Part shown: positions 7,783-27,009 of the stretch, piece after piece
Numbering within the stretch: position 1 is the first letter of the stretch
Layout of the letters: every line of letters begins with the position of its first letter
Source: a virus
Strand: one strand, 5' to 3'
UHGV virus genome: UHGV-0144531
Length of the DNA: 33,245 bases
Position numbers and translations under genes: made by a program
The notes under the pieces: model-generated
Databases searched by the model: none
What the model was told of the DNA's origin: nothing
The model's input: only the letters and a program-made list of their open reading frames with translations

Positions 7783-8537
7783 GCGGGCTTAAAAATTGGG
7801 TGGTGTGGTCGTTGTACGACGGCAGCGGGTACGCCGTTAAAGATTGGGCTGACGCTGGCTATAAGTGTTATTGCTTCAACTATGACGGCGCTAACCACGG
7901 CGACTATGAAGGCGTAAAAATCATTCATCCGAATATTGAATACGTTAACGTATGGATTAACAGCCATTTCCTGGTGATGTTCTCCCCTGAATTGTCTGTT
8001 TATCCAGAGCCTGACATTATTCTGGCCTTCCCGCCATGCGACCATCTAGCCGTGTCCGGCGCTCGTTGGTTTACCAGCAAGCGTGAAAAAGATCCTGACT
8101 TCCAGGTGAAGGCGGCATATAACGCAAAACTGGTAGAAACGCTGGCTGACATGTATCACGTCCCGTGGATGGTGGAAAATCCGGTTGGCGCACTGTCAAC
8201 GTTATGGCGTAAGCCGGATTTTATCTTCAATCCGTGCGCTTACGGTGGATACCTGCCTGAAGATGATAAACATCCTGCTTTTCCTGATGTTTACCCGCCG
8301 CGCGACGCGTACACGAAGAAAACTTGTATCTGGTGCGGCAACGGATTTAAACAGCCGCTTTTTAGACCTGTAGATCTTAACTCTGATGATAACCCTGGCT
8401 GGGCGAAAACTGGAGGCCGGACGAAACGAACAAAGATGATCCGCTCGCTAACGCCGCGCGGCTTCGCCATCGCTGTATTCCTGGCTAACGACCGGGCAAT
8501 CACGCGGACTACGCTTAACCGCGTTTTACCGGAGTGA
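7779..8537 (+). CDS. Putative DNA (cytosine-5) methyltransferase
   Basis: Motif IV-like PPC (AFPPCDHLAVSG) and motif VI-like ENx (MVENPVG); 252 aa; GAGGG RBS. Confidence 0.55.
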   Translation: MSGLKNWVVWSLYDGSGYAVKDWADAGYKCYCFNYDGANHGDYEGVKIIHPNIEYVNVWINSHFLVMFSPELSVYPEPDIILAFPPCDHLAVSGARWFTSKREKDPDFQVKAAYNAKLVETLADMYHVPWMVENPVGALSTLWRKPDFIFNPCAYGGYLPEDDKHPAFPDVYPPRDAYTKKTCIWCGNGFKQPLFRPVDLNSDDNPGWAKTGGRTKRTKMIRSLTPRGFAIAVFLANDRAITRTTLNRVLPE

Positions 8538-8568: not shown

Positions 8569-8637
8569 GATCACATAATGGCGCTTTACGCCTTGTTTGT
8601 GTGTATCCATTTTGTATACTTCAAGCAAACAAAATGC
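8569..8637. promoter_or_regulatory. Recurrent motif cluster: GATCACATAA plus CCATTTTGTATA and AACAAAATGC
   Basis: Intergenic, upstream of the ninG operon; gatcacataa 8569-8578, ccattttgtata 8607-8618, aacaaaatgc 8628-8637. Confidence 0.45.
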
Positions 8638-8696
8638 TCTTTAAAAATCCGGTAACGCTGAAATGCGTAGAAATCACCTGAAAAGGAGAGAGCATT

Positions 8697-8873
8697 ATGT
8701 CTTTTAATGATTACCAATGGCATGACGACTATGAACGAGAAAGCGTCATGCGTGCAATGTGCAATGTATGCAGCACGAAGAAAGGAGGCTGTAACGAGTG
8801 CGACGAATGCTTAGAACATTGGCTAAGGGCAGGGCACGCCGAAAGGCTGAACGAAACAGAGAATCAAAAATAA
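8697..8873 (+). CDS. Small Cys-rich protein (58 aa), putative zinc ribbon
   Basis: CxxC...CxxCxxC pattern (CNVCSTKKGGCNECDEC); strong RBS aaaaggagagagcattATG. Confidence 0.4.
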   Translation: MSFNDYQWHDDYERESVMRAMCNVCSTKKGGCNECDECLEHWLRAGHAERLNETENQK

Positions 8874-8887
8874 TAGGGGTGGTTTTT

Positions 8888-9493
8888 ATGCAGAACCCTA
8901 AAAAACCAATAAGACGCCGTTGCAAATGCTGCGGCGTTTTTTTTGAGCCTAAATATCACAACCAGACGTGGTGCAGTGACGAATGTCTGGAAGAGTTGAA
9001 ATTTGATCAGCTATGCCGCGACCGTGAGAAGGCTATGAAGGCTATGGAACGGAAGAAACGCCGTGATAGCCAGCGGGAAGAACGAAACCGGAAGCGGAAG
9101 CAGTTAAATCCGCGTAGCTACTGGATTAAACAGGCGCAAAACGTTTTTAACGCTTATATACGCGAGCGTGACGCGCGATTGCCGTGTATATCTTGCGGGA
9201 CTTACTACGGTGAGCAATGCGGGTGGGATGCGGGCCATTACAGGACGGTAGCCGCCGCCGGACACCTTCGCTTTAACGAGGATAATTGCCATAAACAATG
9301 CAGACACTGCAACCAGACATTAGACGGAAACATCGGAGGGTATCGCCCTGCGCTGATTCGAAAAATTGGCCTCGCAATGGTGGTTGCGCTGGAGAACAAC
9401 AACGATACACACAAATGGACGATCGCAGAATGTAAGGAGCTAATAAACATCTATCAGGCGAAATTGGACGCCTTAAGGAGAAAGGCAGCATGA
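8888..9493 (+). CDS. ninG: NinG/Rap-family recombination protein
   Basis: Conserved Cys/His clusters (CKCCG..W..C, CISCG, H...NCHKQCRHCN) as in lambda NinG; ATG 8888 with AGGGGTGG RBS. Confidence 0.8.
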   Translation: MQNPKKPIRRRCKCCGVFFEPKYHNQTWCSDECLEELKFDQLCRDREKAMKAMERKKRRDSQREERNRKRKQLNPRSYWIKQAQNVFNAYIRERDARLPCISCGTYYGEQCGWDAGHYRTVAAAGHLRFNEDNCHKQCRHCNQTLDGNIGGYRPALIRKIGLAMVVALENNNDTHKWTIAECKELINIYQAKLDALRRKAA

Positions 9494-9897
9494 ATGAATA
9501 TACCTTTAGCCTGCCTTACCCGCCATCGAATAACCGCTATTACCGACATTCACGGGGTTTTCACTATATCAGCGAAGTGGGGAAGGAATACCGGGAACAA
9601 GTAAAAGACATCATCGAATTATTAAATCTAGACATTAACCTGTCTTGCCGACTGGCAATCGCCATTTATGCCGCGCCGCCTGATAACCGGACCAGGGATC
9701 TTGATAATATCCCTAAATGCCTATTTGACAGCCTTACTTATGCCGGATTTTGGAAAGATGATGGACAAATTGACTCAATAAAAATTGTCCGCTGCCGGAA
9801 GGTAAAAGGCGGACGCTTGTTTATTAAGATCCGCGAACGCGGCGACCTACTACCGGATATTGACGAATACGCGACTAATATGTGGGGTGAGCAATGA
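9490..9897 (+). CDS. rusA: RusA-family Holliday junction resolvase
   Basis: LPYPPSNNRYY start, RTRDLDN and DDGQIDS acidic catalytic motifs. Confidence 0.85.
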   Translation: MNEYTFSLPYPPSNNRYYRHSRGFHYISEVGKEYREQVKDIIELLNLDINLSCRLAIAIYAAPPDNRTRDLDNIPKCLFDSLTYAGFWKDDGQIDSIKIVRCRKVKGGRLFIKIRERGDLLPDIDEYATNMWGEQ

Positions 9898-10076
9898 AAA
9901 ACGAAGTTAAAGATCTGCAAATAGATATTCAGCGCGATGAGCATGATTTAGCTACAGTCCGACAAATCCAGGCTTTTCACATGCGAGAATTACTTGCACT
10001 GAAAGAGTTTGAAAGAAAGCTAGTGCAATCAATATCTGATCGCAAAAGACTGGTTGCACGTTACGGGGGTAAATAA
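9894..10076 (+). CDS. Hypothetical protein (60 aa)
   Basis: ORF translationally coupled between rusA and Q. Confidence 0.45.
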   Translation: MKNEVKDLQIDIQRDEHDLATVRQIQAFHMRELLALKEFERKLVQSISDRKRLVARYGGK

Positions 10077-10798
10077 TGAATTTGGAATCTATTCTTAAAT
10101 TCCACCTCCCAAAATCACCGCGTTTGTCAGATGAAAGCCGGGGCACGTCCCCAGACTCGCTTAATACTACTGATGCACTAACCGCAGCAGGTATGGCGCA
10201 ATCGCGCGTAGAGCTTGGTTATAGCGCTTTTTTAGGGAAGATGGAATTATCGCAAGCCGAAAAACACAGGGCCGTAGTTTTGCTTACAGAGCGTTTAAGA
10301 GCTATGGCAAAAGATTACGAATACGTCATGGAGCTGGACGAGGACAAACGCAATGATCTTATTATTCTTGTTGCCGTTTTCGCGTTTCGGGATTACTGCC
10401 AGAGTGCCGCGACAGAAAAAACTTGTATGGATTGCGGCGGATATAAATTTACGTTTGACGACTACGGAGAAAAACACCTTTGCAAAAAATGCAAGGGGCA
10501 TGGAAAAGTTCGCAATCATTGTAAACGATGCAAAGGGCGCGGCGAGATACCGGATAAAGCAGCCAGTGAAGCAGCGGAAATGCCAGTGTTCAAAACGTGC
10601 CAGCATTGCGGCGGGCGCGGGTACTCGCGTTTCCCTGTAGATCTTGTCCGGCGTGCGGTTAATCAGCTTGTATTTCCGGTAAGCCGATCAACGTGGTGGA
10701 AGAAATACCGTGCTTTCTATGAAGACGCCATTGCTGAATTGTTCAAAGAAGAGGCGCAGGCTGATAACGAAATTAAACGAGTGACACGGGGTGAATAA
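10076..10798 (+). CDS. Q: Lambda-type late antiterminator Q
   Basis: N-terminus (LESILKFHLPKSPRLSD..AAGMAQS), zinc-finger cysteines and C-terminus (HKEE..ADNEI) align with lambda Q as I recall it. Confidence 0.9.
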   Translation: MNLESILKFHLPKSPRLSDESRGTSPDSLNTTDALTAAGMAQSRVELGYSAFLGKMELSQAEKHRAVVLLTERLRAMAKDYEYVMELDEDKRNDLIILVAVFAFRDYCQSAATEKTCMDCGGYKFTFDDYGEKHLCKKCKGHGKVRNHCKRCKGRGEIPDKAASEAAEMPVFKTCQHCGGRGYSRFPVDLVRRAVNQLVFPVSRSTWWKKYRAFYEDAIAELFKEEAQADNEIKRVTRGE

Positions 10799-10998
10799 TG
10801 AAACAACAAGAGATAAACATGAAAAAAGTGATTATTCTTTTTGAAGATTATAACGGTGATGCATGGTGCAAGTATTTAAGCGGTGTTGAAGCACGGTTGG
10901 CGCTAACGTTTATTGCCGCACTGGATGAAGGGGATTTTAACGCTATTCCGGTTAAGCCAGTAGAAATCTATCGTCGCGAGGTGAAGGATGAAGCCTAA
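10798..10998 (+). CDS. Hypothetical protein (66 aa)
   Basis: ORF; ATG overlaps the Q stop (TAATG). Confidence 0.45.
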   Translation: MKQQEINMKKVIILFEDYNGDAWCKYLSGVEARLALTFIAALDEGDFNAIPVKPVEIYRREVKDEA

Positions 10999-11257
10999 AT
11001 TAAAAGAACATCTATTCGCAAAGCTGGTTAATAATCTGACATTAACGGCGCGTGTGTGCAGTGATACGCAACAATTAGGGTCGTGGATAGTAAGGGATTT
11101 AAGAAAATACATCGAGCCAGGCGGGCCAGGTGACGAGATGACTATGGACAAGGCCATCAAGCGCCGTTCGGCTGATTGGTCAGTAAGTAACACAGGATTA
11201 ACCGGATACATCGAAGGCTACAACGACTGCTTACAGGATCATAGCGATGGCAAGTAA
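10988..11257 (+). CDS. Hypothetical protein (89 aa)
   Basis: ORF in co-directional string. Confidence 0.45.
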   Translation: MKPKLKEHLFAKLVNNLTLTARVCSDTQQLGSWIVRDLRKYIEPGGPGDEMTMDKAIKRRSADWSVSNTGLTGYIEGYNDCLQDHSDGK

Positions 11258-11555
11258 AGACCTACACTTGAACCTGAAAGGGGAATATTTCCACGCCATC
11301 CGGGCGGGAAAGAAGGTGGAGGAATACCGACTTTATAATGAATACTGGCGTAAACGCCTGGAGGGGCGGGAATATGAACGCCTGATCATTAAGCTGTGGT
11401 ATCCAGCCAGCCACGAAGCGCACCGGAACATAAACCTGCCTTATTTCGGGTACGAAGTAAAAACTATCACGCATCCATTATTCGGCCCTGATCCTGTTAA
11501 GGTATTCGCAATTAAATGTGATGTGAATTGGATGTTAAGGTGGGGGGAGCAATGA
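11247..11555 (+). CDS. Hypothetical protein, possibly ASCH/PUA-like
   Basis: N-terminal LHLNLKGEYFHAIRAGKKVEEYR resembles ASCH/DUF3850-type cores; from memory only. Confidence 0.4.
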   Translation: MASKDLHLNLKGEYFHAIRAGKKVEEYRLYNEYWRKRLEGREYERLIIKLWYPASHEAHRNINLPYFGYEVKTITHPLFGPDPVKVFAIKCDVNWMLRWGEQ

Positions 11556-11767
11556 AAAAAGCTGGCCTATCAATTAGCCGTGTATTGTGCGGTGACGAAA
11601 ACGAGATCCGCATAGAAATTAAATTTAGCACAGGTAAAGAGATAATCCTTTACACGACACCTGAAAACCTGACGCTGGCGCTTACTGGTAAATCTGAAAC
11701 GCCGTGCGACGTCCGGTTGCGCAATATTGAAATTAAGGAATTAAGGAAGGTGAAAGATGAAAAGTAG
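11552..11767 (+). CDS. Hypothetical protein (71 aa)
   Basis: ATG 11552 preceded by GGGGGGAG RBS; track start 11528 would overlap upstream gene. Confidence 0.4.
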   Translation: MKKAGLSISRVLCGDENEIRIEIKFSTGKEIILYTTPENLTLALTGKSETPCDVRLRNIEIKELRKVKDEK

Positions 11768-11957
11768 AATGAAACGCATGGTAAGAGCTTACGATAAGGC
11801 TTTAATGGTTTTTGATGATTTGCGACGCAATAAGCGTGAGCGTCGTAAATGGGCGCGTTTATTCGCGAAAGAATGGCACGAAGACGATGCGACAATCGAC
11901 TGTCAAAAAGACGCTGACGAATTAGCTGACGATAACGTTTATTATATGATGTGGTGA
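11757..11957 (+). CDS. Hypothetical protein (66 aa)
   Basis: ORF in co-directional string. Confidence 0.4.
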   Translation: MKSRMKRMVRAYDKALMVFDDLRRNKRERRKWARLFAKEWHEDDATIDCQKDADELADDNVYYMMW

Positions 11958-11961
11958 CAAC

Positions 11962-12327
11962 ATGCAAATAATCATTGATTACCTTTGCCATGCAGCAAAT
12001 ACACTTTTCGGTTTTTATCAACAACCTTTCCTTAAAGAGTGGGATTCGATGTTAAACGATATCCTCGACAAAGGATTAATAATGGAGGTTGACGAGCTTA
12101 CAATCAAAATTAATTATGAAGGTGAAGAATATCAAATTTGGGTGGGTAATAGATGGTATTCATACGGTCATATTTATTCAATTGGTGGTAAGTTCATTAA
12201 AAGAAACCAGGAATTCAGACCGCGCTTCCGCACAATGCGCCGACTACATAACCTGCATATGAATCTATTTGAAGACCAGGAAGCACGGGAACTATTCAAG
12301 ATCTACGGAGATAAATCATGGAGCTAA
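11962..12327 (+). CDS. Hypothetical protein (121 aa)
   Basis: ORF; AT-rich by eye. Confidence 0.45.
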   Translation: MQIIIDYLCHAANTLFGFYQQPFLKEWDSMLNDILDKGLIMEVDELTIKINYEGEEYQIWVGNRWYSYGHIYSIGGKFIKRNQEFRPRFRTMRRLHNLHMNLFEDQEARELFKIYGDKSWS

Positions 12328-12548
12328 AAATCTGGCAGGCTATCGACGTAGTTGATAATGAGTTAAGTATGTTTGCCACTGACGGAAAGCGCGCGGTGAT
12401 CGCCACATGGACGCGTAACCATGATGATATCGCTTTTCGTCGCAAGGCTGCGGAGTGGCTTTTCTCTGATGGCGGCTACACGATGAACATCGCCCAGCTT
12501 GCCAGAATGAAGGATGAAAAGCTGGTAGACAGCTACACAACTGCATAG
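12318..12548 (+). CDS. Hypothetical protein (76 aa)
   Basis: ORF in co-directional string. Confidence 0.45.
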   Translation: MELKIWQAIDVVDNELSMFATDGKRAVIATWTRNHDDIAFRRKAAEWLFSDGGYTMNIAQLARMKDEKLVDSYTTA

Positions 12549-12558
12549 CGGGGTAAAT

Positions 12559-12792
12559 ATGCGTATCTATGAACACAAGCGGGATAAAACCCGCTTTTTT
12601 GTTCGTGCTGGCGTGGCGTACCAGTATCACGAATGTGGATATATTGAGGCGCTTGCTTACGACCTGGATTTCGAACAAGAAAAAGAATGGTTTGACTTTA
12701 AGATTTACCGGAAGCGCAAGCCAACGCGCGACGAGCGCCACGCTATCCGTGATTTTCTAATCAGCATTGACCGCTGGGAGGCAGAAGAATGA
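12559..12792 (+). CDS. Hypothetical protein (77 aa)
   Basis: ORF in co-directional string. Confidence 0.45.
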   Translation: MRIYEHKRDKTRFFVRAGVAYQYHECGYIEALAYDLDFEQEKEWFDFKIYRKRKPTRDERHAIRDFLISIDRWEAEE

Positions 12793-13082
12793 GAACGAAG
12801 AAAGTGGCAGATCAGAAAGCGTTAGTTATCGCTACAACGGACGTATCGTTATTCACGAAGGGCGAAGAAATAGATCTTAAATTGCTTTTCGGTATGTTTG
12901 AGCCACACGAAAAGCCGTGGTTTGTTCATGAAGACAAACAAGGCAATATGCGCGTAGTAGTGCCGGACAAAAACAGCGACATATTTTTTGCTATTCCAGA
13001 CCCGTTGCATGACGGAGAAATGCTGGCGGTATTGCTTATCGCTGATGCTGTTACTTACAAGGGAAAGAAATATGAAAGTTAA
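12789..13082 (+). CDS. Hypothetical protein (97 aa)
   Basis: ORF in co-directional string. Confidence 0.45.
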   Translation: MRTKKVADQKALVIATTDVSLFTKGEEIDLKLLFGMFEPHEKPWFVHEDKQGNMRVVVPDKNSDIFFAIPDPLHDGEMLAVLLIADAVTYKGKKYES

Positions 13083-13299
13083 ATTCTTGCACGATCACGG
13101 CTACCCGTCATTGAAACAGGTTGTTGGTAAGGTCGTTAATGTCGTTCATAGCGATGAGATTACTTGCATGATTAATGGTGCTGATCTCATTGCCGCTGGT
13201 GCTGATGACCATTACATAAATCCGGCATGGTCGTATACGTTCAGCCTGGGCGACTTCGTTGGCGATAAGGGACGCGGGCTGGAAGTAGTCGAGGGTTAA
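13072..13299 (+). CDS. Hypothetical protein (75 aa)
   Basis: ATG 13072 (MKVKFLHDHG); the longer track ORF from 12988 overlaps the upstream gene. Confidence 0.4.
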   Translation: MKVKFLHDHGYPSLKQVVGKVVNVVHSDEITCMINGADLIAAGADDHYINPAWSYTFSLGDFVGDKGRGLEVVEG

Positions 13300-13303
13300 T
13301 ATT

Positions 13304-13552
13304 ATGGACGTTTACGAGGATGTTTGCCTGGCACCTTCATCTTATAGCTTTTATTTTCTGATAAATGGAAAGGCTTATAGATGCGATTCTGACGGGGTGA
13401 GAGAAGAAAAGCTGTTTTGCACTAAAGGATACCTGGATGATTTGGTTTTTGCCGGGATATTTCGTAAACGCCCGGCTAACCTGGAAGAAGAAATGCTGAT
13501 CGAGGTAATTAAAAATGAAAATCAAGGTAAGTTATTTCCGGGCGAAAGATAA
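13304..13552 (+). CDS. Hypothetical protein (82 aa)
   Basis: ORF in co-directional string. Confidence 0.4.
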   Translation: MDVYEDVCLAPSSYSFYFLINGKAYRCDSDGVREEKLFCTKGYLDDLVFAGIFRKRPANLEEEMLIEVIKNENQGKLFPGER

Positions 13553-13766
13553 GGCAACTGGAAAGCGGATGGCGATCCTGGTTAACGAGGCAGGATATAT
13601 GTTTGTCCTGTACCCGTGGTGCATAGCTAGCCATAACGATTATTATCGCCGTCACGCTGCGCGGAGTGCGGTAGGGATGAAGGGTTGGCAACCTCGCGAC
13701 ATGGAAAACTATTGTGAATGGAAATTAGTGGCAAAATACACGGTCGATTATAAAGGGGTTTTCTGA
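13515..13766 (+). CDS. Hypothetical protein (83 aa)
   Basis: ORF in co-directional string. Confidence 0.4.
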   Translation: MKIKVSYFRAKDKATGKRMAILVNEAGYMFVLYPWCIASHNDYYRRHAARSAVGMKGWQPRDMENYCEWKLVAKYTVDYKGVF

Positions 13767-13978
13767 TGCAAGTTAAATGCTCATACTCAAGCAATGACAG
13801 TGTTTTCACGATTGGGAGTATTTATGACGTTCACATCGTTTATGGCAATGAAGCACACACAATGAGTAATTGCCTTGCCTTGATTGATAATCATGACGAA
13901 ATATGGGTATTCAGGCCGAGCTATGAAGGCGGTGAAATATCCGGTGTAGGTTTTGCTGCCAGCTTTGAACGTTATTAA
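13766..13978 (+). CDS. Small protein, paralog family member A (70 aa)
   Basis: Shares C.YS...F..G.IY.V and D..G..W.F motifs with the next three ORFs. Confidence 0.45.
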   Translation: MQVKCSYSSNDSVFTIGSIYDVHIVYGNEAHTMSNCLALIDNHDEIWVFRPSYEGGEISGVGFAASFERY

Positions 13979-13988
13979 AGGGGCAACA

Positions 13989-14246
13989 ATGAAACATTTA
14001 TATTTTGAGGTATTGCAGACGCGCGACCGCAATATTTTTGAAGAAGGGAAGATCTATTGCGGCGTTCAACTCCACGGCGCACCGGGCGGTGATGGTGCAA
14101 TGGCGATAACTGGCGATGATGATAAAGTTTATTTCGCTTATGTTAGCCATATCAATAACGCCGCTGGTTTGTATATTTATCGCATAGTGCATGATTTCCG
14201 TGAGATCGCGGAGTTTTGCGCCCGCGAAGGCAGTAAACCGGAATAA
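13989..14246 (+). CDS. Small protein, paralog family member B (85 aa)
   Basis: ATG 13989 with AAAGGGG RBS; FEEGKIYCGV and GDDDKVYFAY motifs. Confidence 0.45.
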   Translation: MKHLYFEVLQTRDRNIFEEGKIYCGVQLHGAPGGDGAMAITGDDDKVYFAYVSHINNAAGLYIYRIVHDFREIAEFCAREGSKPE

Positions 14247-14256
14247 GTGAGGTGCT

Positions 14257-14496
14257 ATGAATCGGAAACATAGATACCAGTGCACATACTCACGATGCAG
14301 CGCGTTTTTTAAGAATGGCAAGATCTACGAGGTTGACGCGGCATTGGTTGACGCAAAGGATCAGGAATATATTCATGCCATTACTGACGACCAGGGGCAG
14401 TTATGGCGATTTTATAAGATGGGTTGTGGCACGGCGCTTGTTTATGCGCGTGCTGGTGGTGGTGCTTTTGCTGCGTTTTCGTATGTAGGGGTATGA
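14257..14496 (+). CDS. Small protein, paralog family member C (79 aa)
   Basis: CTYSRCSAFFKNGKIYEVDA and TDDQGQLWRFY motifs. Confidence 0.45.
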   Translation: MNRKHRYQCTYSRCSAFFKNGKIYEVDAALVDAKDQEYIHAITDDQGQLWRFYKMGCGTALVYARAGGGAFAAFSYVGV

Positions 14497-14717
14497 AAAT
14501 GATTTTAACGTGTAACGAATCGAAATTGGGCTGTTTTGAGGAAGGCGTACAGTACACGGCTGAAAAACCGATGGGATTGTCTCCTAAATTTCCGTTTATC
14601 GTCGTGACTGACACTTACGGTCACTTATGGTATGCAGGGCCGCTAGGCGGTATTGGTCGTTATGTTGTCCGTAGTTCGGATGGGGCGATGAAGGTTACTT
14701 TTACGGAAGAAGCATAA
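14493..14717 (+). CDS. Small protein, paralog family member D (74 aa)
   Basis: ATG 14493 with AGGGG RBS; LTCNESKLGCFEEGVQYTAE and TDTYGHLWYAG motifs. Confidence 0.45.
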   Translation: MKMILTCNESKLGCFEEGVQYTAEKPMGLSPKFPFIVVTDTYGHLWYAGPLGGIGRYVVRSSDGAMKVTFTEEA

Positions 14718-14777
14718 ATGTGATCTACCCTTCAAAGTTTACAAAATGGCATTGTTCTGGTGGCGCCATTTTGTTAT
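14714..14777. promoter_or_regulatory. Palindromic element TTTACAAAATGG-N16-CCATTTTGTTAT with adjacent GATCACATTT (reverse orientation)
   Basis: Intergenic; aaatgtgatc 14716-14725; tttacaaaatgg 14738-14749; ccattttgttat 14766-14777; TATAAA-like -10 inside the right arm. Confidence 0.5.
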
Positions 14778-14815
14778 AAAGAAGCTGAAGAGAGAACGAT
14801 GCGGAGGGTAGAAAA

Positions 14816-15088
14816 ATGAAACGCTGGATTAACGAAGAAACAAAAGCCCGCTTCAATGCAATTTGGGATCTGATTGAAAAAGAGGACGGCGTTTCTAGTC
14901 CCTACCTGAACAATCTTGAGTTCCACTATGTAGAAGCGATGAACGCAGAGCATGACCACCAAGTCGGTGCTGATGAATTCGCCAAAAAATACGGCTTCGA
15001 TGATGCAAACCATATGATTAACAACGTGGTGATGCAGGCAGAGGAAGACTACGAATGCAAATCACTTGAATTCGCACGTATGGCATAA
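14816..15088 (+). CDS. Hypothetical protein (90 aa)
   Basis: First ORF downstream of the palindromic element. Confidence 0.45.
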   Translation: MKRWINEETKARFNAIWDLIEKEDGVSSPYLNNLEFHYVEAMNAEHDHQVGADEFAKKYGFDDANHMINNVVMQAEEDYECKSLEFARMA

Positions 15089-15098
15089 GGGGGAAACC

Positions 15099-15239
15099 AT
15101 GAACGCTAACGCTAAATATCCGGCCTGGGTTTTCGAACTGTACGCAAGATACTTTGAATTACTGGCACAAGGTGAAGAAGCATTAAGCATTGACGAGTAC
15201 GCGGAGTGCTTAGGGTTTAAAGGAGGCGAAGAAGCATAA
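15099..15239 (+). CDS. Small hypothetical protein (46 aa)
   Basis: ATG with AAGGGGG RBS; below ORF-track cutoff. Confidence 0.3.
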   Translation: MNANAKYPAWVFELYARYFELLAQGEEALSIDEYAECLGFKGGEEA

Positions 15240-15282
15240 AACACGGGGCAGGATGGCCCCATCAAATCAGAAGGGTGTAATC

Positions 15283-15582
15283 ATGAAAAGCGCTAAATTT
15301 ATTGCTTGCTGTTTTGTTGAAGTTCCTAACGATGATGTTTTCTGTAATTATGAATTTAAAGACAGCTTAGGCAGATCTCACATTGTTGTTGGCAAACGTG
15401 GTGACTGGTTATATATCACTGATGGAGACAGGATCTTCACTAAAAACCAGTTGTTAATAATAAAGTCAAAAAATGATGAAATACAGGTCGGTATTATGGG
15501 GATCATAAGTTATCACGCCAGTTTATTGTTAAAACACGATGTGGTAAATAAAGCGCGTAGCTTACCTGGTGCTGAATTTTAA
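15283..15582 (+). CDS. Hypothetical protein (99 aa)
   Basis: ATG 15283 with AAGGGTG RBS; visibly AT-rich coding sequence. Confidence 0.45.
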   Translation: MKSAKFIACCFVEVPNDDVFCNYEFKDSLGRSHIVVGKRGDWLYITDGDRIFTKNQLLIIKSKNDEIQVGIMGIISYHASLLLKHDVVNKARSLPGAEF

Positions 15583-15605
15583 TTCCTTACGAAGGAGAAT
15601 AATCA

Positions 15606-15929
15606 ATGTCTAAATTTATCAGTGTTAAAGTTTTCCGTGGATCTTTTCCAGAAGATAAAGAAATTGGACAATTCGCAGGTAAACGCGGCGCATGTTTCCG
15701 TGTGGCTACTGAAGACGACGCGCACGTTAAACGCTTCCACGTATCTGAACCGCCTTTTGACGCAGACCATCTTGAAGACCTGGATAGAATTAAAAGCCTA
15801 GTTTTTGCCTATCTGATGTTCCAGGGTATCGCTGATATGGAAGTGGAATTGCTTGGCGCTGAACTGGTTGCAGAATACAAAATGACTGAAGCAGAAAACA
15901 GAGGGGTTGAAATTGAGCGCATCAAATAA
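15606..15929 (+). CDS. Hypothetical acidic protein (107 aa)
   Basis: ORF with AAGGAG RBS; Asp/Glu-rich. Confidence 0.45.
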   Translation: MSKFISVKVFRGSFPEDKEIGQFAGKRGACFRVATEDDAHVKRFHVSEPPFDADHLEDLDRIKSLVFAYLMFQGIADMEVELLGAELVAEYKMTEAENRGVEIERIK

Positions 15930-16164
15930 GCTGTATAAAGTCAGATGTAAACGCGAATACCCTGGCTTTACGATTGGTTGCGAATATCTGGGCCATATTG
16001 GGTACGGCCCTTTCGGTGAGTTGGGAATGAATACGATTGACGACGACGGCGACAGCAGGACGCTCGATCTTGATACGGATGACTTCGAATATATCCCTCC
16101 AGTTACTTACCGTGCCGTAGATGATTTCCTGGCTGAACAAGAAGATGATGAAGAGGATGATTAA
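15907..16164 (+). CDS. Small protein with highly acidic C-terminal half (85 aa)
   Basis: C-terminal 45 residues roughly 40 percent Asp/Glu, ending DDFLAEQEDDEEDD. Confidence 0.45.
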   Translation: MKLSASNKLYKVRCKREYPGFTIGCEYLGHIGYGPFGELGMNTIDDDGDSRTLDLDTDDFEYIPPVTYRAVDDFLAEQEDDEEDD

Positions 16165-16166
16165 CT

Positions 16167-16307
16167 ATGGATGACGAATACGTTAACAATTTTATTGTTA
16201 TGTTTCTTAGTGAGAACTGGCGCATGTTTGAACATTATTGTTTTGAGCGCGGGGAAAATGCTGAAGAAATCTATCAATATTTAGGCGGGGAGAAAGAGGA
16301 TGATTGA
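16167..16307 (+). CDS. Small hypothetical protein (46 aa)
   Basis: ATG immediately after upstream stop; below ORF-track cutoff. Confidence 0.3.
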   Translation: MDDEYVNNFIVMFLSENWRMFEHYCFERGENAEEIYQYLGGEKEDD

Positions 16308-16500
16308 ATGTCTTATCTTTGCTGTATTTCTCCTTTATATCGCTGGCGCTATCCTGATGTCTTGTTTCATCAAATGTAACGATCTCGATCGTGGTGGCCT
16401 TGAGATTCCTTTCTGGCCTGTAGCGGTGTTTATCGCTTTCTTCGGTGCAACGCTAGTGCAGATTAAGCGAGCCATTAAGGAGCGTAAAAATGGGAAATAG
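16300..16500 (+). CDS. Small membrane protein (66 aa, 2 TM helices)
   Basis: Two hydrophobic segments (LIFAVFLLYIAGAILMSCFI; FWPVAVFIAFFGATLV) and basic C-terminus. Confidence 0.4.
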   Translation: MIECLIFAVFLLYIAGAILMSCFIKCNDLDRGGLEIPFWPVAVFIAFFGATLVQIKRAIKERKNGK

Positions 16501-16714
16501 CGACCATCAATATGACGGCGTTTATCAGTCATTGGTGTCACGCGCTTATTATCGCCTTGAAGGTGAACACGTAATGATGCGATCACGCCAGTTTGAACCG
16601 TGGCATGAAACGGTTTTACCTGTGACAGCGAAAGAAGTTATCACGATGTTTAATCACGGACATTGGAGCAAGATTGGCGATATTAAGTTCAGGATGTTTA
16701 AAGAGGGCGGTTAA
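16490..16714 (+). CDS. Hypothetical protein (74 aa)
   Basis: ORF in co-directional string. Confidence 0.4.
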   Translation: MGNSDHQYDGVYQSLVSRAYYRLEGEHVMMRSRQFEPWHETVLPVTAKEVITMFNHGHWSKIGDIKFRMFKEGG

Positions 16715-16897
16715 ATGATTGAAGATGGTATATACGCCGTGAACCTCATTGATGAAATGTTTTACCGCGTGGAGGGTAATGATATTCGTATCAGTATCGA
16801 TGGTGGCGAGTGGAAAGAGCCATTCATGGATATGACGCGGGAAATAATTGAAATCATGCTTTATAACGGCGACGTGGTGAAGGTTAGCGACCTGTGA
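16715..16897 (+). CDS. Hypothetical protein (60 aa)
   Basis: ORF in co-directional string. Confidence 0.4.
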   Translation: MIEDGIYAVNLIDEMFYRVEGNDIRISIDGGEWKEPFMDMTREIIEIMLYNGDVVKVSDL

Positions 16898-17070
16898 ACG
16901 AGATCGAAGACGGCATCTATTTGCATAAGGTATTTAACATCGTCTATTTACTTAAAGGTAATAAGGTGATGATAAGACCTGATGACGATCCACATTGGGA
17001 ATCAAGCGACATGGATCGGTGGCATATGCAAATGTTGTTTGATAATGGCCTGATATACAAAACTGCGTAA
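16894..17070 (+). CDS. Hypothetical protein (58 aa, GTG start)
   Basis: GTG overlapping upstream stop; shows the same EDGIY / RISIDGGEW-like pattern as 16715-16897. Confidence 0.25.
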   Translation: MNEIEDGIYLHKVFNIVYLLKGNKVMIRPDDDPHWESSDMDRWHMQMLFDNGLIYKTA

Positions 17071-17077
17071 GCCGTAT

Positions 17078-17106
17078 TTGTAGAGCGTAAACAAACGGAT
17101 TAAAAT
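17078..17106 (+). promoter_or_regulatory. Sigma70-like promoter, candidate late promoter (PR'-like)
   Basis: -35 TTGTAG (17078-17083), 17-bp spacer, -10 TAAAAT (17101-17106); a terminator lies about 30 nt downstream and the lysis cassette follows. Confidence 0.45.
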
Positions 17107-17134
17107 ATTTCCTAACAATGCGAAATTGTAATTA

Positions 17135-17157
17135 CCCGGCCCCCGCGCCGGGTTTTT
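17135..17157 (+). terminator. Rho-independent terminator (tR'-like) upstream of the holin gene
   Basis: cccggc-ccccgc-gccggg hairpin followed by ttttt. Confidence 0.6.
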
Positions 17158-17177
17158 GCTTTGTTGGAGGTAAATCT

Positions 17178-17378
17178 ATGTTCGACAGAATACGGGAGGC
17201 GTGCGCGTATGTGACTGGGGCCGTAACTGCTTTTTTCGGCGCGATAACCATCAATGACATTGCCGTCTTTGTGGGTATCTTATCAACCGTAGGCACATTT
17301 GCCGTTAATTATTACTTCAAATCACAGGAGAACAAGCGGGCGCAAGAGGAACACGACGCGCGAATGGGGAATAAGTAA
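17178..17378 (+). CDS. Holin (class II / pinholin-like, 66 aa)
   Basis: ATG 17178 with GGAGG RBS; two hydrophobic helices and charged C-terminus (YYFKSQENKRAQEE) like phage 21-type S; directly precedes the endolysin. Confidence 0.7.
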   Translation: MFDRIREACAYVTGAVTAFFGAITINDIAVFVGILSTVGTFAVNYYFKSQENKRAQEEHDARMGNK

Positions 17379-17867
17379 ATGATTAGCCAATCGCTGAAAA
17401 ACAAGATTGTTGCGGCGGCTGGTGGGGCGATCGCTATTGCGGCGGTGATGATAAAAGATCTTGAAGGCGTTGAGTATAAGCCATACAGAGATGTCATCGG
17501 TGTTTACACGATATGTTATGGACACGTCGGAAAAGACATCATGCTTGGTAAGACTTACACGCAATCAGAATGCGATGCTTTATTAAATAAAGATCTACAC
17601 AAGACCGCAAAAGCGATTGACCCATATATCAAAGTCGAAATATCAGATTTTACCCGCGCAGCACTTTATTCATTCGCCTATAACGTAGGCGCTACCAACT
17701 TCAAAACATCAACCTTACTAAAACTACTCAATGACGGCAAGAAATCAGAAGCGTGCGCACAGCTTAAACGCTGGGTATACGCTGGCGGTAAGAAGTGGCA
17801 AGGCCTGGTAAACCGCCGCGAGGTTGAATATGCCGTTTGCGAATGGGGGGAAACGTGGACAAGGTGA
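17379..17867 (+). CDS. SAR endolysin (T4-lysozyme-like muramidase with N-terminal signal-anchor-release domain)
   Basis: N-terminal Gly/Ala-rich weak TM ([16 protein letters not shown]) followed by catalytic E..D..T triad ([21 protein letters not shown]), as in P21 R and P1 Lyz. Confidence 0.85.
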
Positions 17868-18325
17868 AGGCGTTAATTATCGCCGCTGTTGTTTGCATTA
17901 TTGCCGGACTGACCGCCGTAACATGTTATTACCAGGGTGAGGCGGCAAGGTTACAGGAAGAAGTCACGGTAACGAAAGGCGCACTGAAAACGGCAAGTAA
18001 CACTATTCAGCAGATGAAGGAGCGAAACGCCGAACTGTCAAAACTTGATAAGAGGTATCACGATGAGATTAAAGCTATCAGATCTGACATTGCCGATCTG
18101 CGCACTGGCATTGATAACGGCACTATCAGGCTGCGCGTCAACGCAATACCCGTGCGAGTGTCCGACTCCGCCGAATCCGCCAGCCGCATTGATGGAGCCT
18201 CCTGTAGACTCACTCCCGACGCTGAATCGGCTTATCTATCCCTCAGAGAACAACTAAAAACGAAAGACGCTCAGATTACTGGTCTTCAGGACTACATCAA
18301 AACTCAGTGCTTACGCAAAGAATAA
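17843..18325 (+). CDS. Rz-like i-spanin
   Basis: N-terminal TM helix ([17 protein letters not shown]) then coiled-coil periplasmic domain; embedded Rz1 in +1 frame; start uncertain (ATG 17843 or GTG 17855). Confidence 0.65.
18063..18257 (+). CDS. Rz1-like o-spanin (outer-membrane lipoprotein) embedded in Rz
   Basis: Signal peptide with lipobox (LITALSGC), proline-rich mature region ([17 protein letters not shown]); entirely inside Rz in another frame. Confidence 0.65.
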   Translation: MRLKLSDLTLPICALALITALSGCASTQYPCECPTPPNPPAALMEPPVDSLPTLNRLIYPSENN

Positions 18326-21825: not shown

Positions 21826-21904
21826 AATCTGCCTCACAACTACCAACAAGTTTTTTTTATTTTTCGCGTAGCAACGCGTAAACATGTATTCAGGAGTAAA
21901 CATT

Positions 21905-23275
21905 ATGCCATCCAATTTAGAATTGGCGGTTAATGCTGCCTTGTCTCAACGCCAGGCGGCCTTTGCCCGCTATGCAGCGGCACATCCGTTCACTATGGGG
22001 ATAGATGCCAAACGTGATGCTGCGTGGAGTGAATACGGATTTAAAGAAGAGATCACGTATCACGATCTATACAAACTGTACAGACGCGGCGGCATCGCTC
22101 ACGGTGCTGTAGAAAAGATTGTTACTACTTGCTGGCGCACCAAGCCAAAGATGATTGAAGGAACTGAAGACGAGAAAGCGAAAAAGGAAACACCGTGGGA
22201 AAGAGAAATCAAGAAGAAATTTAACAACAGATTTTGGCGCACTGTTGCTGAATGTGATCGCCGCCGCCTCATTGGTCGTTACTCTGGTCTGTTAATTCAT
22301 ATCAGAGATAACAAGCCGTGGGATCAGCCAGTGACAAAAGGCGTAGGCATTGCAAAATTTACCCCTGTGTGGGCTGGCGCTCTTACACCGAAGGACTTCG
22401 AAGAAAACCCGGATAATGAAAACTATGGCCTGCCAACGTGGTGGGAATACAAAGAACGCATTAACAGTAAGACCATTGCCAGAAAGATCCACCCTGACCG
22501 CATATTCATCTTTGGCGACTATTCTGATGATGTCATCGCTTTCCTTGAACCTTCCTACAACGCATTCGTATCACTGGAAAAAGTGGAAGGCGGTAGTGGT
22601 GAATCATTCCTGAAAAACGCAGCGCGTCAGCTTGCCATTTCGTTCGATAAAGAGATTGACTTCCGTTCCCTGGCTGCAACATACGATTGCGACGTTACAG
22701 AGTTACGCGAAAGATTCAATGAGGCTACGGCTGAAATGAATAAGGGTAATGACGTAATGATGGCGTTACAGGGTGCGACAGTAAGCCCGCTGGTTACTGC
22801 CGTATCTGACCCGTCATCAACCTATGACGTAAACCTGCAAACCGCCGCCGCTGGTGTTGATATTCCAACCCGCATCTTGGTTGGGAACCAGCAGGGAGAA
22901 CGCGCATCAACCGAAGACCTGCGTTACTTCAACAGCCGCTGCATGACCCGCAGGGAGGAAATCGGTGGCGAGATTGAAGATCTGTTCCGCAAGATGGCAG
23001 ATCTACGCCTTATCAGTATGCCAGTAGATGTATCAGTGCTATGGGACGACCTTAACGCCATGACCAAAGCAGAGCTACTGGAAGCCGCAGACAAGATGGC
23101 GCAAATCAATCAGGCTTGTTTGGCTACTGGTGAAGAAATATTTAGCGGCGATGAGATCCGCGAGGCTGCCGGATACGATGGCCCAGCCAGTGAAGTAGAA
23201 ACGGAAGAGGATGACGATGATGAAGGTGAAGAAAATAATCAGGCGAATACCTCCAGCCGCGATAATGCCATCTAA
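21905..23275 (+). CDS. Portal protein
   Basis: About 460 aa directly downstream of TerL; acidic C-terminal tail; ATG 21905 with AGGAG RBS. Confidence 0.65.
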   Translation: MPSNLELAVNAALSQRQAAFARYAAAHPFTMGIDAKRDAAWSEYGFKEEITYHDLYKLYRRGGIAHGAVEKIVTTCWRTKPKMIEGTEDEKAKKETPWEREIKKKFNNRFWRTVAECDRRRLIGRYSGLLIHIRDNKPWDQPVTKGVGIAKFTPVWAGALTPKDFEENPDNENYGLPTWWEYKERINSKTIARKIHPDRIFIFGDYSDDVIAFLEPSYNAFVSLEKVEGGSGESFLKNAARQLAISFDKEIDFRSLAATYDCDVTELRERFNEATAEMNKGNDVMMALQGATVSPLVTAVSDPSSTYDVNLQTAAAGVDIPTRILVGNQQGERASTEDLRYFNSRCMTRREEIGGEIEDLFRKMADLRLISMPVDVSVLWDDLNAMTKAELLEAADKMAQINQACLATGEEIFSGDEIREAAGYDGPASEVETEEDDDDEGEENNQANTSSRDNAI

Positions 23276-24161
23276 CACCGAAGACCCGACCATGACAGGG
23301 AAGTTAAGGTCGGGAGCTATTAAGCGTTTTAAAGCCTGCCTGAAGAAAGTTGCGGATCCGTATATCGCCATATTGGACAGAATCCAATATAGCCTGGCTG
23401 TTAATAAGAAATACACCTTTCAGATTTACATGGATGAATTTCACGACATGCTGGAGGACGCAAGCGACATGATTGATGAGATATTCGAGTTAACAGACCC
23501 GGAAAACTTCTGGTTCTGGCAGAATTACGTGAAGGTGGCCTATCAGCGCGGCACGGCACAGGAATATGCCAACCTCGCTAACCAGTCTGTCACGTACTCA
23601 AGCGTTTATCCCGATGTATCTGCCGTACTATCAAGCACAACCTACCGCACGCGCCTTGCCCTGGTCCGTACCCGTGTATTTGAGGAAATGCGCGGGCTGA
23701 CAGCACAGATCAAAAAGGATATGGCCCGCCGACTAACTGAAGGCATGGCCCGTGGTTTAAACCCACTGGAAATAGCGCGCACATTGAATCAGGAGACGCA
23801 ATTACCGCTATACAGGTGTAAACGTATTGCTCGAACTGAAATATGCACAGCGTTACGCACAGCGCGTATGGATGAGGCAGAAGCGGCGACAGAAGAATTT
23901 AATCTGCGCACTATGCAAATGCACATTTCGGCATTATCACCGACTACCAGGCTATCGCACGCGCAGCGGCACGGTAAAACATACACCATAGATGAGCAGC
24001 GCGAATGGTGGAGTAGATCCCCTAATTCAATTAACTGCAAATGTAGCACGATTACCGTATTAGTTGACGAAGACGGTAACATATTAAACGAACGAATATT
24101 AGATCGGGCGCAAGAAAACTATAAAGTTGCGCACGCTAAATATGGCGAAGATTGGGAGTAA
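23265..24161 (+). CDS. Putative head morphogenesis / minor head protein
   Basis: About 300 aa immediately after the portal gene, the usual position of Mu F / SPP1 gp7-like proteins; start uncertain. Confidence 0.45.
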   Translation: MPSNTEDPTMTGKLRSGAIKRFKACLKKVADPYIAILDRIQYSLAVNKKYTFQIYMDEFHDMLEDASDMIDEIFELTDPENFWFWQNYVKVAYQRGTAQEYANLANQSVTYSSVYPDVSAVLSSTTYRTRLALVRTRVFEEMRGLTAQIKKDMARRLTEGMARGLNPLEIARTLNQETQLPLYRCKRIARTEICTALRTARMDEAEAATEEFNLRTMQMHISALSPTTRLSHAQRHGKTYTIDEQREWWSRSPNSINCKCSTITVLVDEDGNILNERILDRAQENYKVAHAKYGEDWE

Positions 24162-25435
24162 AAACCGTGAGTAAAGAACTGATTCAGGTTAATACCAAAT
24201 TAACCGCTAATACCATACGCCGGGAAACTTATAACGGACGCGAGCACATTGTTGTGCCATCATATACGCTGCCATTCAATATCGTTATGAATCGTGAATA
24301 TTACCCGGAAGCTGAAATTATCGCTAATTACCAGTCACTGGAGGGTACGCTTGCCCCGCTGGGCCATCCTACCGTTGACGGTAAATTTGTTTCAGCATTT
24401 AGCCCGGAAGGATTAAACACGGGTTTTTGTGGTGCGTGGAACAGAAACGTTGAGTTACGCGGCAACCGTGTTTATGTGGAAAAATGGGTGGATGTGGAAA
24501 CCGCCAGCCATTCAAGCCAGGGCCGCGAATTATTAGCCCGACTGGAAGCACTGGAGAAAGGAGAAAGCAAAGATCCTATCTGGTCGTCCGTCGCTGTATA
24601 TCGCCAGCGTATGCCAGCCACCGAAGAAATGAAAGCCCAGGGTGCTGACCATGTAGTGAAAATCATGTCGATCGACCATGACGCTATCTTGCTGCATGAG
24701 CCGCCAGCCGCTTCGCCGGAACAGGGCGTAGGCTTAATGGTTAATACCGACCAGGCGAAGCCGTTAATGGCGGTGGCAATGAAAGAAAATAGCTATCGCA
24801 CACTTGAAAAACAGTTAACCGCTGCTGCGCGGGAAATGTTCCCTGACGCTGATTACGTATACGTGGTGGACTTCACTGATAGAGAGGTGACGATCGCCAC
24901 TAATGAAAACTGTGCGGAAAGATACAACTACGAAAAACAGGCTGATAAAATTATTCTCAATAATGGCGAGCTTACAACCAACGAGGAAAGTAAATCCTGG
25001 TTTACTCAGTTCGCTGAACACCTTTCTAATCTTTTCTCCCTGAATGAAAAAATTAAGGCCAATAAATCGGAGGACGATCCCATGCCTTTGACCAAAGAAG
25101 AACGCGCCGAACTGGTAAAAGAAATTAACGAAGGCTTATCCGCCAATATCGCTAATGCAGTAGCAGAGGCATTAAAACCAGTACAGGCAAGCGTTGAAGA
25201 ATTACAGACCAATCAGAAAGCGATTAAAGAAGAGATCGCAGCAAACGCAAATAAAGAAGAAGCAGAAAAACGCGCCGCAGTAGCAAAAGTACACGGCGAA
25301 ATTGTTGCTAACGCATTAAGCGGTGAAGCGTTAGAAGCAATGTTTAAATCCCTGGGCAAAGCAGCGCCGATGGCTACCAACGCAGCAAACGAAGGTAAAA
25401 AAGGCGAAGTCCCGGACTTTAACACCTATTTCTAA
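24152..25435 (+). CDS. Putative scaffolding / prohead maturation protein
   Basis: 427 aa; globular N-terminal half, Ala/Glu/Lys-rich coiled-coil-like C-terminal half; lies between portal-side and capsid genes. Confidence 0.4.
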   Translation: MGVKTVSKELIQVNTKLTANTIRRETYNGREHIVVPSYTLPFNIVMNREYYPEAEIIANYQSLEGTLAPLGHPTVDGKFVSAFSPEGLNTGFCGAWNRNVELRGNRVYVEKWVDVETASHSSQGRELLARLEALEKGESKDPIWSSVAVYRQRMPATEEMKAQGADHVVKIMSIDHDAILLHEPPAASPEQGVGLMVNTDQAKPLMAVAMKENSYRTLEKQLTAAAREMFPDADYVYVVDFTDREVTIATNENCAERYNYEKQADKIILNNGELTTNEESKSWFTQFAEHLSNLFSLNEKIKANKSEDDPMPLTKEERAELVKEINEGLSANIANAVAEALKPVQASVEELQTNQKAIKEEIAANANKEEAEKRAAVAKVHGEIVANALSGEALEAMFKSLGKAAPMATNAANEGKKGEVPDFNTYF

Positions 25436-25897: not shown

Positions 25898-26962
25898 ATG
25901 TACTTTACAAAAGAAAACCTTGCCACCAACGCCCGTATGCAGGGCCATTGGAAAGAACTGTGGGCGCAACGCAATATCTTCAACGAGCAGCACAACGCCA
26001 TGATTGCTGCAAATCAGGCAAATATGACCGCTGAAATGTTGACCTGTAACGCCGTCGGCGGCTTCGCAAAAGAATTCTGGAAAGAAATCGATAACCAGAT
26101 TATCGAACTGAACACCGAAGAAATCGGTATTGAGATCGTAAACGACCTGATGGGTGTGCAAACCGTACTGCCAATCGGTAAAACGCTGAAAATGTACAAC
26201 GTATCCGGTGACATCGATGATGAAGTTGTGATGTCTATGGATGGTCAAGCGCCACACGGCTTTGATCACACCGAATACGGCAGCGATGGCGACCCGATCC
26301 CGATGTTCGCAGCGGGTTACGGTGTTAACTGGCGTTTAGCTCAGGGCTTAAATACTGTAGGCATCGACCTTGCATTAGACAGCCAGCGCCTTAAACTGAA
26401 AAAATTCAACAAAGCACGCGTCCAGTTCTACCTGAATGGTAACGATCGCATCGTGGTTGATGGTCATAAAGCAATGGGTCTTAAAAACCACAAAAACACC
26501 CAGCAACTTAAACTGAAAACTGTCGCTAAAATCGACCTGACCACCGCGACTTTCGATAAGATTATTGAATTCTTTACCACTGGTGAGTTCGGGAAACTGG
26601 CCCGCGCCAACTTCGTAGCTAAATACGATGTAATGTGGGTATCGCCAGAAATCATGGCTAACCTGGCACGCCCACACATCGTTAATGGCGTAATTGTTGG
26701 TAGTGTACTGGATGTTATCAAGCCGTTTGTCCCGGTTGATGATATTCGCCAGACCTATGCGCTGACTGGCAACGAATTTATCGCTTATCAGCGTAGTCGC
26801 AGCGTCATCACCCCGCTGATTGGCATGACCACTGGCGTAGTTCCGTTACCGCGCATGATGCCGACCGATAACTACAACTTCCGCATTATGTCTGCTGAGG
26901 GTCTTCAGATCACCTGTGATATGAAAGGTCGTTCAGGTGTGGTCTACGGCAGCAATACCTGA
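25898..26962 (+). CDS. Major capsid protein
   Basis: 354 aa; position after scaffold/decoration genes; strong RBS; terminator immediately downstream. Confidence 0.6.
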   Translation: MYFTKENLATNARMQGHWKELWAQRNIFNEQHNAMIAANQANMTAEMLTCNAVGGFAKEFWKEIDNQIIELNTEEIGIEIVNDLMGVQTVLPIGKTLKMYNVSGDIDDEVVMSMDGQAPHGFDHTEYGSDGDPIPMFAAGYGVNWRLAQGLNTVGIDLALDSQRLKLKKFNKARVQFYLNGNDRIVVDGHKAMGLKNHKNTQQLKLKTVAKIDLTTATFDKIIEFFTTGEFGKLARANFVAKYDVMWVSPEIMANLARPHIVNGVIVGSVLDVIKPFVPVDDIRQTYALTGNEFIAYQRSRSVITPLIGMTTGVVPLPRMMPTDNYNFRIMSAEGLQITCDMKGRSGVVYGSNT

Positions 26963-26982
26963 TTGATATGTTTCCTGTAACT

Positions 26983-27009
26983 CCCCGGCGCGATGCCGGG
27001 GATTTTTTT
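26983..27009 (+). terminator. Rho-independent terminator after the major capsid gene
   Basis: ccccggc-gcgat-gccgggg hairpin followed by attttttt. Confidence 0.65.

Follow-up and report, generated by a model that had tools for sequence, protein, structure and literature searches.

The closest described systems are the late control regions of lambdoid phages served by antiterminators of the Q-lambda family, which is PF03589 by name (PMC9388147). In lambda, the PR'-qut-tR' region (6S RNA) adjoins the Q gene, and its elements follow in the order promoter, pause element at +1 to +6, terminator, and lysis genes. In P22, the corresponding set (gene 23, P-late/PR', qut, and t-late) is more compact, with about 45 nt between the stop codon of gene 23 and the cassette and with the t-late hairpin starting at +31, whereas tR' of lambda is at about +194. 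In both phages, the late start is the first A of AACGAT, located 6 nt after the -10 hexamer TAAATT, and Q loads at AACGAT, which acts as a sigma70-dependent pause element (SDPE); the lambda/P22 equivalent of the pause element is TCAACGATGG. The consensus-like TTGACT is the -35 hexamer in P22, and in lambda it both serves as the -35 hexamer and lies beside the pause element. The binding site of lambda Q is in the spacer between the -35 and -10 hexamers, and loading of Q involves promoter-proximal sigma retained from initiation (PMC9388147).

The ES18-type phages (Salmonella and enterobacterial lambdoid prophages) carry the nearest Q subfamily outside the group considered below. Our comparison covered 80 ES18-type Q loci and 68 distinct PR' regions. 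In all 80, the Q stop codon is followed after 40-70 nt by TTTACA, the spacer AAGTGGCGATWTTTGTT, and TAATMT. Seven nucleotides after the -10 hexamer stands (C)TAACGATGG/CTAACGATGG, CCAATGATGG, or CTAACAGTAG, and the hairpin often begins at +26/+27. One locus, L123, reads ATAACAATG at this place.

Accessory genes inserted in the interval between Q and the lysis genes are known from Stx-converting lambdoid phages such as 933W, where they lie downstream of PR'-tR' and hence are Q-dependent late genes. For the coliphage mEp021, a 2023 study of its terminators in Arch Virol reportedly demonstrated one of them, 't5', experimentally. The GenBank record of this phage (MH706966) annotates Q (gp37), a hairpin homologous to the one described below (TERM_5), and the holin (gp46). 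The late promoter, the pause element, and qut are neither annotated in MH706966 nor described in PMC11893012, which covers Gp17 and the nut sites and treats the Q-lambda-like protein in general terms only.

The window, that is, the whole stretch of viral DNA analyzed here (UHGV-0144531, 33,245 nt), contains a locus of this kind. The region around 17078-17157 is 88-92% identical to the mEpimmI coliphages mEp021, mEp010, mEp013, mEp044, mEp515, mEp554, and MagusPhagus, and it is also matched in prophages of 35 complete E. coli genomes; these matches place the window among the relatives of the mEpimmI coliphages (mEp021 group). The genes for NinG (8798-9493) and RusA (9490-9897) are followed by the Q antiterminator gene (10076-10798, plus strand; 240 aa; Pfam PF03589, E = 1.2e-29). 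Next comes a variable accessory block of about 22 tightly packed small ORFs on the plus strand (10798-17070), with overlapping start and stop junctions in the ORF list. The first late gene encodes a holin of 66 aa (PF16080; 17178-17378, plus strand, ATG at 17178) and is preceded by the ribosome-binding site GGAGG (17166-17170, plus strand). The genes for endolysin (17379-17867; Pfam PF00959) and Rz (17837-18325; PF03245) follow on the plus strand, and terminase and virion genes are located 3' of Rz. Between a cytosine methyltransferase-like gene and NinF, the plus strand carries a boxA-like TGCTCTTTAA and a boxB-like ACGCTGAAATGCGT at 8636-8675, probably the counterpart of the published mEp021 nutR2. 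Annotations of the gene at 21884-23275, after the large terminase gene (L002, from 11250; L003, from 11092), are in conflict: it is a 'portal protein' in phage records and an 'anti-CBASS protein Acb1 family protein' in RefSeq for the E. coli prophage copies.

The Q protein is 35% identical to lambda Q and matches the lambda Q structure 7UBM with E = 1e-39 in a phmmer search. Its N-terminal torus region (the RNA-exit torus segment), including G39, is conserved. Judged by these similarities, it is a genuine member of the Q-lambda family. Compared with the lambda and P22 proteins, its zinc-ribbon arm is enlarged by a cysteine-rich insertion (CxxC...CxxC; residues ~117-147). The same insertion is common to the ES18-type Q proteins, whose identity to the window's Q is about 35-40%, and it may alter the recognition of the DNA site. 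Protein searches also revealed closer relatives, with 76% identity (L184/185) and 48% identity (L179-182, on sequences of ~53 kb from Logan contigs such as SRR23253395_6136). No relatives of the window's Q were found among the GTDB species representatives; for Q of the 48% sister group, IMG/VR contains distant matches only and no close relative.

The gap before the holin gene (17071-17177, 107 nt) contains, in this order, a -10 hexamer, AACAAT, and a GC-rich hairpin with a T-run. The initial annotation had described the first part of it as a good sigma70 promoter. The hexamers are indeed in place, TTGTAG at 17078-17083 and TAAAAT (5/6) at 17101-17106, both on the plus strand and separated by a spacer of 17 nt, but "good" overstates the case. 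Only TTG of the -35-like hexamer agrees with TTGACA (3/6), the two hexamers together have 8 of 12 consensus matches, the pair is not listed by a hexamer promoter scan, and about one third of the relatives have TCGCGC in place of the -35. The scan yielded fewer promoter-like sites in this region than in shuffled sequence; therefore, hexamer matches carry no weight as evidence, and this approach was dropped. An extended -10 is absent, as TAAAAT is preceded by GAT. Given a -35 with 3/6 matches at best and no extended -10, the basal strength of the promoter is doubtful.

The 3' half of the spacer (AAACAAACGGAT, 17089-17100, plus strand) is conserved and contains a candidate Q-binding element. Downstream of the -10 hexamer, the discriminator ATTTCCT (17107-17113, plus strand) covers the predicted start region, with +1 predicted at 17113 or 17114. 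It is followed by the -10-like hexamer AACAAT (17114-17119, plus strand; about +1 to +6), the proposed SDPE, which stands 7 nt past the -10 hexamer and has both the key A2 and the key T6 of a -10-like element. This hexamer, overlooked by the initial annotation, is the most telling feature of the gap. A pause is predicted near 17129-17130, at about +16/+17.

The intrinsic terminator tR' (17134-17163, plus strand) consists of a hairpin with seven pairs, six of them GC, and the T-run TTTTTGCTTTG. The hairpin ACCCGGC-CCCCGC-GCCGGGT (17134-17153) has a 7-bp stem (17134-17140 and 17147-17153) and a 6-nt loop. It begins 27 nt after the -10 hexamer, and the GGAGG of the holin gene follows, so the original description of a GC hairpin with a T-run within about 30 nt, and then the holin ribosome-binding site, is accurate. 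Counted from AACAAT, the hairpin begins after 14 nt, at about +21, and transcript release is predicted at +44 to +47. The distance from the pause site to the terminator is very short, about 5 nt. Among terminator-like sites on the plus strand between 9000 and 20000, this hairpin ranks first. The RNA 17114-17165 folds with -20.6 kcal/mol (z = -3.97); in its minimum free energy fold, AACAA and GCGAAA pair with UUGUU and UUUUGC flanking the hairpin. A search of 10-20 kb with the Rfam 15 covariance models gave no match at 17000-17200 with E <= 1.

This layout is common to P22, the ES18-type phages, and lambda. As in lambda, a Q protein of the same family is combined with a putative promoter, a putative pause element at +1 to +6, a terminator, and lysis genes, in this order. 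As in P22, the -10 hexamer and a -10-like AAC(G/A)AT at +1 to +6 are separated by 6-7 nt, and a compact cassette is followed by the holin gene; the hairpin of P22 at +31 provides a precedent for such a compact promoter-terminator cassette. The spacing of 7 nt and the CTAAC(G/A)ATG context are those of the ES18-type loci, the window having TAAAAT-ATTTCCT-AACAATG. The differences concern the -35 and the position relative to Q. P22 has TTGACT and the ES18-type loci have the conserved TTTACA, compared with a 3/6 hexamer here, and the spacer of P22, where Q binds, is unrelated in sequence to that of the window. Both P22 and the ES18-type loci have the cassette near Q, and in lambda it adjoins Q. 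The homologous element of mEp021, with 89-96% identity over 17040-17200 and the same gene order, is 1.9 kb from Q, compared with 6.3 kb in the window. Thus, the arrangement proposed initially, that of a lambdoid late promoter, is correct as to the P22/ES18 geometry and the family of Q, whereas the short distance from promoter to terminator is not that of lambda.

The distance from the Q stop codon (10798) to 17078 is 6.28 kb. The initial annotation regarded the location of Q far upstream, past an accessory block, as the unusual part. It is unusual compared with other long-arm (related lambdoid) Q genes, where, according to our cassette detector described below, 27-61 nt separate the stop codon from the cassette, but it is not peculiar to the window: across the group, the distance varies from 1.1 to 7.1 kb, a range in which the 6.3 kb of the window is among the larger values. 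Adjacency to Q, which is typical of a Q-lambda-type cassette, is thus absent here. A PR' directly after Q was considered and rejected, as the next ORF overlaps the Q stop codon and no motif or cassette is present there. Since Q acts in trans, the separation is a difference in organization and not in mechanism.

The intervening block is variable and consists of small genes in the early orientation, and it probably forms the distal end of the early right operon. Unlike the accessory genes of Stx phages, it lies upstream of the cassette and hence should be expressed early, not late. When 20 of its ORFs were compared with PHROG, all matches were to families of 'unknown function'. The block includes tandem paralogs (16490-17070 and 13766-14496, plus strand), with three consecutive ORFs matching phrog_15318 and two matching phrog_31142; such tandem paralogous small genes explain the duplicated junction sequences in BLAST comparisons of relatives. 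A 164-nt gap at 15089-15252 is accompanied by a terminator-like hairpin on the minus strand (15243-15262, ATGGGGCCATCCTGCCCCGT followed by GTTTTATG), while all neighboring genes are on the plus strand. In mEp021 (L001), gp41 (8003-8251) lies inside the block between Q and the holin gene and is annotated as a virion structural protein, and two virion-associated proteins are known to be encoded upstream of the lysis region (PMC11893012). If the block is early, gp41 would be an early-expressed virion component.

To describe conservation, we used 45 IMG/VR loci collected via Q, supplemented with mEp021, MagusPhagus, and two E. coli prophages. For 48 loci collected by BLAST (31 distinct sequences), the alignment covered 200 nt ahead of the holin gene, and column counts are given for up to 43 distinct relatives. 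TAAAAT has no variable columns (0/6), and neither has CTAACAATGCGAAA, which includes AACAAT (0/14). Both stem arms and the T-run are near-invariant, with a compensatory change from CCCGG/CCGGG to CCCAG/CTGGG in two variants, and the loop varies in 4 of 6 columns. The -35 region is variable (14/19 columns), as are third codon positions of the holin gene (55/66). The discriminator varies in 3 of 5 columns, with the variants ATTACCT, ATTCTCT, and ACTTCCT and a length of 6 nt in L184, which matches the expectation for a spacer. Over the 31 distinct upstream variants, the best -35 score is 3/6 in 22 (TTGTAG, TTGTGG, TTGTAT, and TTGTTG) and 2/6 in nine (TCGCGC), and it never reaches 4/6.

Recombination breakpoints recur at two places, the stop codon of the last accessory ORF (~17068-17070) and the interior of the promoter spacer (~17089), and they separate two upstream classes, GCCGTATTTGTAG... 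and CCATAATCGCGCATAAAAA... Despite these breakpoints, AAACAA and GAT of the spacer do not vary in the mEpimmI relatives. By inspection, the Q allele (720 or 726 nt) does not correlate with the -35/upstream class. Three loci have a different holin allele and retain the element. Thus, the element is kept when the upstream gene or the holin allele is swapped, and it behaves as a unit. A scan for the exact pattern found it on 46 IMG/VR contigs, nearly all of which have this type of Q; three of the 46 are outside the Q list, and for two of these three the Q gene of the sample is on another contig.

A loose motif derived from the lambdoid phages (TAANNT, 6-7 nt, AAYRATG) matches the window twice, at 17101 and 24946, with 0.35 matches expected by chance, and on its own it is not rare. 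Of the two matches, only that at 17101 is intergenic, has a terminator after it, and recurs at the corresponding position in the relatives (47/49 loci). A more specific detector requires a -10-like hexamer, 5-8 nt, an SDPE-like hexamer, and a terminator 8-45 nt later. We ran this detector on 80 metagenome loci, over the 9 kb that follow Q; it found one cassette per related locus and about two spurious matches in ~0.5 Mb, and in every relative the cassette is the only one between Q and the late genes. To judge from these counts, what exceeds chance at this site is conservation and layout, not hexamer matches. The second match of the loose motif, GAAAAACAGGCTGA-TAAAAT-TATTCTC-AATAAT-GG at 24930-24970 on the plus strand, is similar to the site at 17101 and to its counterparts in L184 and L179. 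However, it belongs to the coding sequence of the gene 24152-25435 and is not followed by a terminator. Variation at synonymous sites is weakly suppressed there (2/14 compared with 62/153, p = 0.045, in four distinct sequences only). This match may be a chance one, or it may be an internal pause or Q-loading site.

The sister group whose Q is 48% identical to that of the window has the synteny NinG-RusA-x-Q, 3 kb of small ORFs, and the holin gene. The gap before the holin gene (L179, 13736-13846) contains TATAAT-TCCCTC-AATAAT, then 17 nt, a 10-bp hairpin, and T7. The layout of the cassette is the same as in the window, whereas the sequence is different, and a -35 is again absent. TAAACAA, located 6-7 nt upstream of the -10 hexamer, is common to the sister group and the window. 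Because the spacer is conserved, TAAACAA recurs in the sister group, and the lambda Q site also lies in the spacer, we consider AAACAA...GAT a candidate Q-binding element.

Several terminators are located inside the late operon. A strong intrinsic terminator with nine pairs, seven of them GC, and T7 follows the gene 25898-26962 on the plus strand (26982-27012), and mEp021 has TERM_7 annotated at the equivalent place. Since strong terminators are present inside the operon (26982 and 29322), late transcription would need processive antitermination. The hairpins at 29322-29337 (strong, in the late operon) and 30028-30044 are perfectly palindromic and GC-rich, with T-runs on both strands. They look like bidirectional terminators, in a region where late genes of the plus strand meet ORFs of the minus strand (30062-32632).

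Based on these data, the gap 17071-17177 is most probably the Q-dependent late control cassette of an mEpimmI-type phage, with promoter activity and Q dependence as its predicted properties; we put the probability of this reading at about 75%. From the arrangement of the elements, we infer a start site, a pause, a Q-binding site, and Q-dependent read-through. Sigma70 polymerase would start at about 17113/17114 on a promoter defined mainly by the -10 hexamer TAAAAT, the -35 being weak or absent. Region 2 of sigma would then re-bind AACAAT at +1 to +6, and polymerase would pause at about +16/+17. Without Q, the terminator (hairpin with U-run, from +21 to about +45) would stop transcription, leaving an RNA of about 45 nt and silent late genes. 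Q, made from the early right operon, would bind the promoter spacer, with AAACAA...GAT as the candidate site, engage the paused complex, probably together with NusA, and form an RNA-exit nozzle as lambda Q does. The modified polymerase would ignore the hairpin and later terminators, such as that at 26982, and transcribe the holin, endolysin, Rz, terminase, and virion genes. In addition, the early operon, with Q and the accessory block, would end at this hairpin. As a mechanism this is ordinary; the departures from the textbook case are that the cassette is unlinked from Q by a variable block, that it has no proper -35, and that the hairpin is unusually near the pause.

The gap might instead contain only a terminator ending the early right operon, with neither a promoter nor a Q-loading site. 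The upstream block would then be the 5' half of an extended RNA stem, and expression of the late genes would depend on read-through by polymerase that the N-like Gp17 has modified, or on a Q site at another location. The poor or absent -35 agrees with this, and the extended pairing of the minimum free energy fold (AACAA/UUGUU and GCGAAA/UUUUGC) could explain conservation of the AACAATGCGAAA block at the RNA level; covariation is uninformative on this stem because all its columns are constant. N-like antitermination is, in addition, proven in the group, with nutR2 upstream of NinF-Q (PMC11893012), and the window has boxA/boxB-like sequences at 8636-8675. Yet TAAAAT is outside the extended stem and does not vary, the sister group keeps TATAAT-6 nt-AATAAT in a different sequence, and the ES18-type PR' has the same spacing and the same CTAAC(A/G)ATG context. 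Moreover, changes in the 3' arm of the small ACAAT/ATTGT pairing are not compensated, and the conserved Q would be left without a visible target, no other cassette being present in the 9 kb after it. For these reasons, a terminator without a promoter is unlikely. We also considered and rejected a nut site or boxB-like hairpin (AACAATGCGAAATTGT), as its 3' arm (ACAAT/ATTGT) varies uncompensated and no boxA similar to TGCTCTTTAA is found near 17100.

A location of the true Q-loading site in the conserved block 12318-12612, with the 17134 hairpin merely a downstream terminator read by Q-modified polymerase, is hardly plausible. The block does have suggestive features. In mEp021, it directly follows Q, with the hairpin 259 nt past the Q stop codon in a lambda-like geometry; the hairpin AAGCGGGATAAAACCCGCTT and its T-run TTTTTGTT are near-constant in almost all relatives; synonymous variation is suppressed (3/14 third positions vary compared with 47/63 elsewhere, p = 3e-4); and a promoter-like CTGGCA-16-GATAAT occurs at 12332-12359. 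But in both ORFs the variation follows a clean three-base period, and both are preceded by ribosome-binding sites; the block is therefore coding. Several relatives have GATAAC instead of GATAAT, and downstream of this hexamer the sequence is unconserved and has no -10-like pause element; with no conserved -10 or pause motif, the block was rejected as a real qut. It is not fixed beside Q either, being 0.26-2.1 kb away, and the hairpin is missing from L029-L031. The hairpin (12577-12596; site 12577-12602 within 12572-12612, plus strand) overlaps codons 1-18 of a conserved ORF of 77 aa (12559-12792), and it probably acts as a genuine terminator or attenuator within the early operon.

Transcription by Q-modified polymerase might not start at the site at all: the enzyme would arrive from the early operon and take sigma70 in trans at the tandem -10-like elements, or a -35-less promoter would be activated by Q or another phage factor. 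A usable -35 is indeed lacking in the group and in the sister group, and transcription of the early operon runs directly into the site, which has no further strong terminator close to it. Still, the known Q-lambda loading uses sigma retained from initiation (PMC9388147), and a good -35 box is present in every related lambdoid cassette. This reading would thus break with the known pattern, and we consider it very unlikely. The late promoter may truly lack a -35 and not be self-sufficient for sigma70. In that case, Q, with its extra zinc ribbon, would bind in the spacer and also recruit or retain polymerase, or Q would load onto early-operon polymerase that gains sigma70 at the tandem -10-like elements. 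This variant is quite unlikely; if true, either option would explain how the site could drift kilobases away from Q, to the end of the early operon.

As a Q-dependent cassette, the site would mark where late expression switches on in the mEpimmI coliphages, non-lambdoid phages common in the human gut, for which only the early (N-like) antitermination has been studied. A Q-lambda-type cassette would not have to adjoin Q, and here some 10-25 small genes of unknown function are located between the two. For annotation, the triplet of a -10 hexamer, a -10-like hexamer, and a terminator can find late promoters when adjacency to Q fails. The weak or absent -35, combined with the short distance from pause to terminator, offers a compact test of how much promoter a Q-loading site needs. 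The intervening genes would fall in the early program, the reverse of the arrangement in Stx phages.
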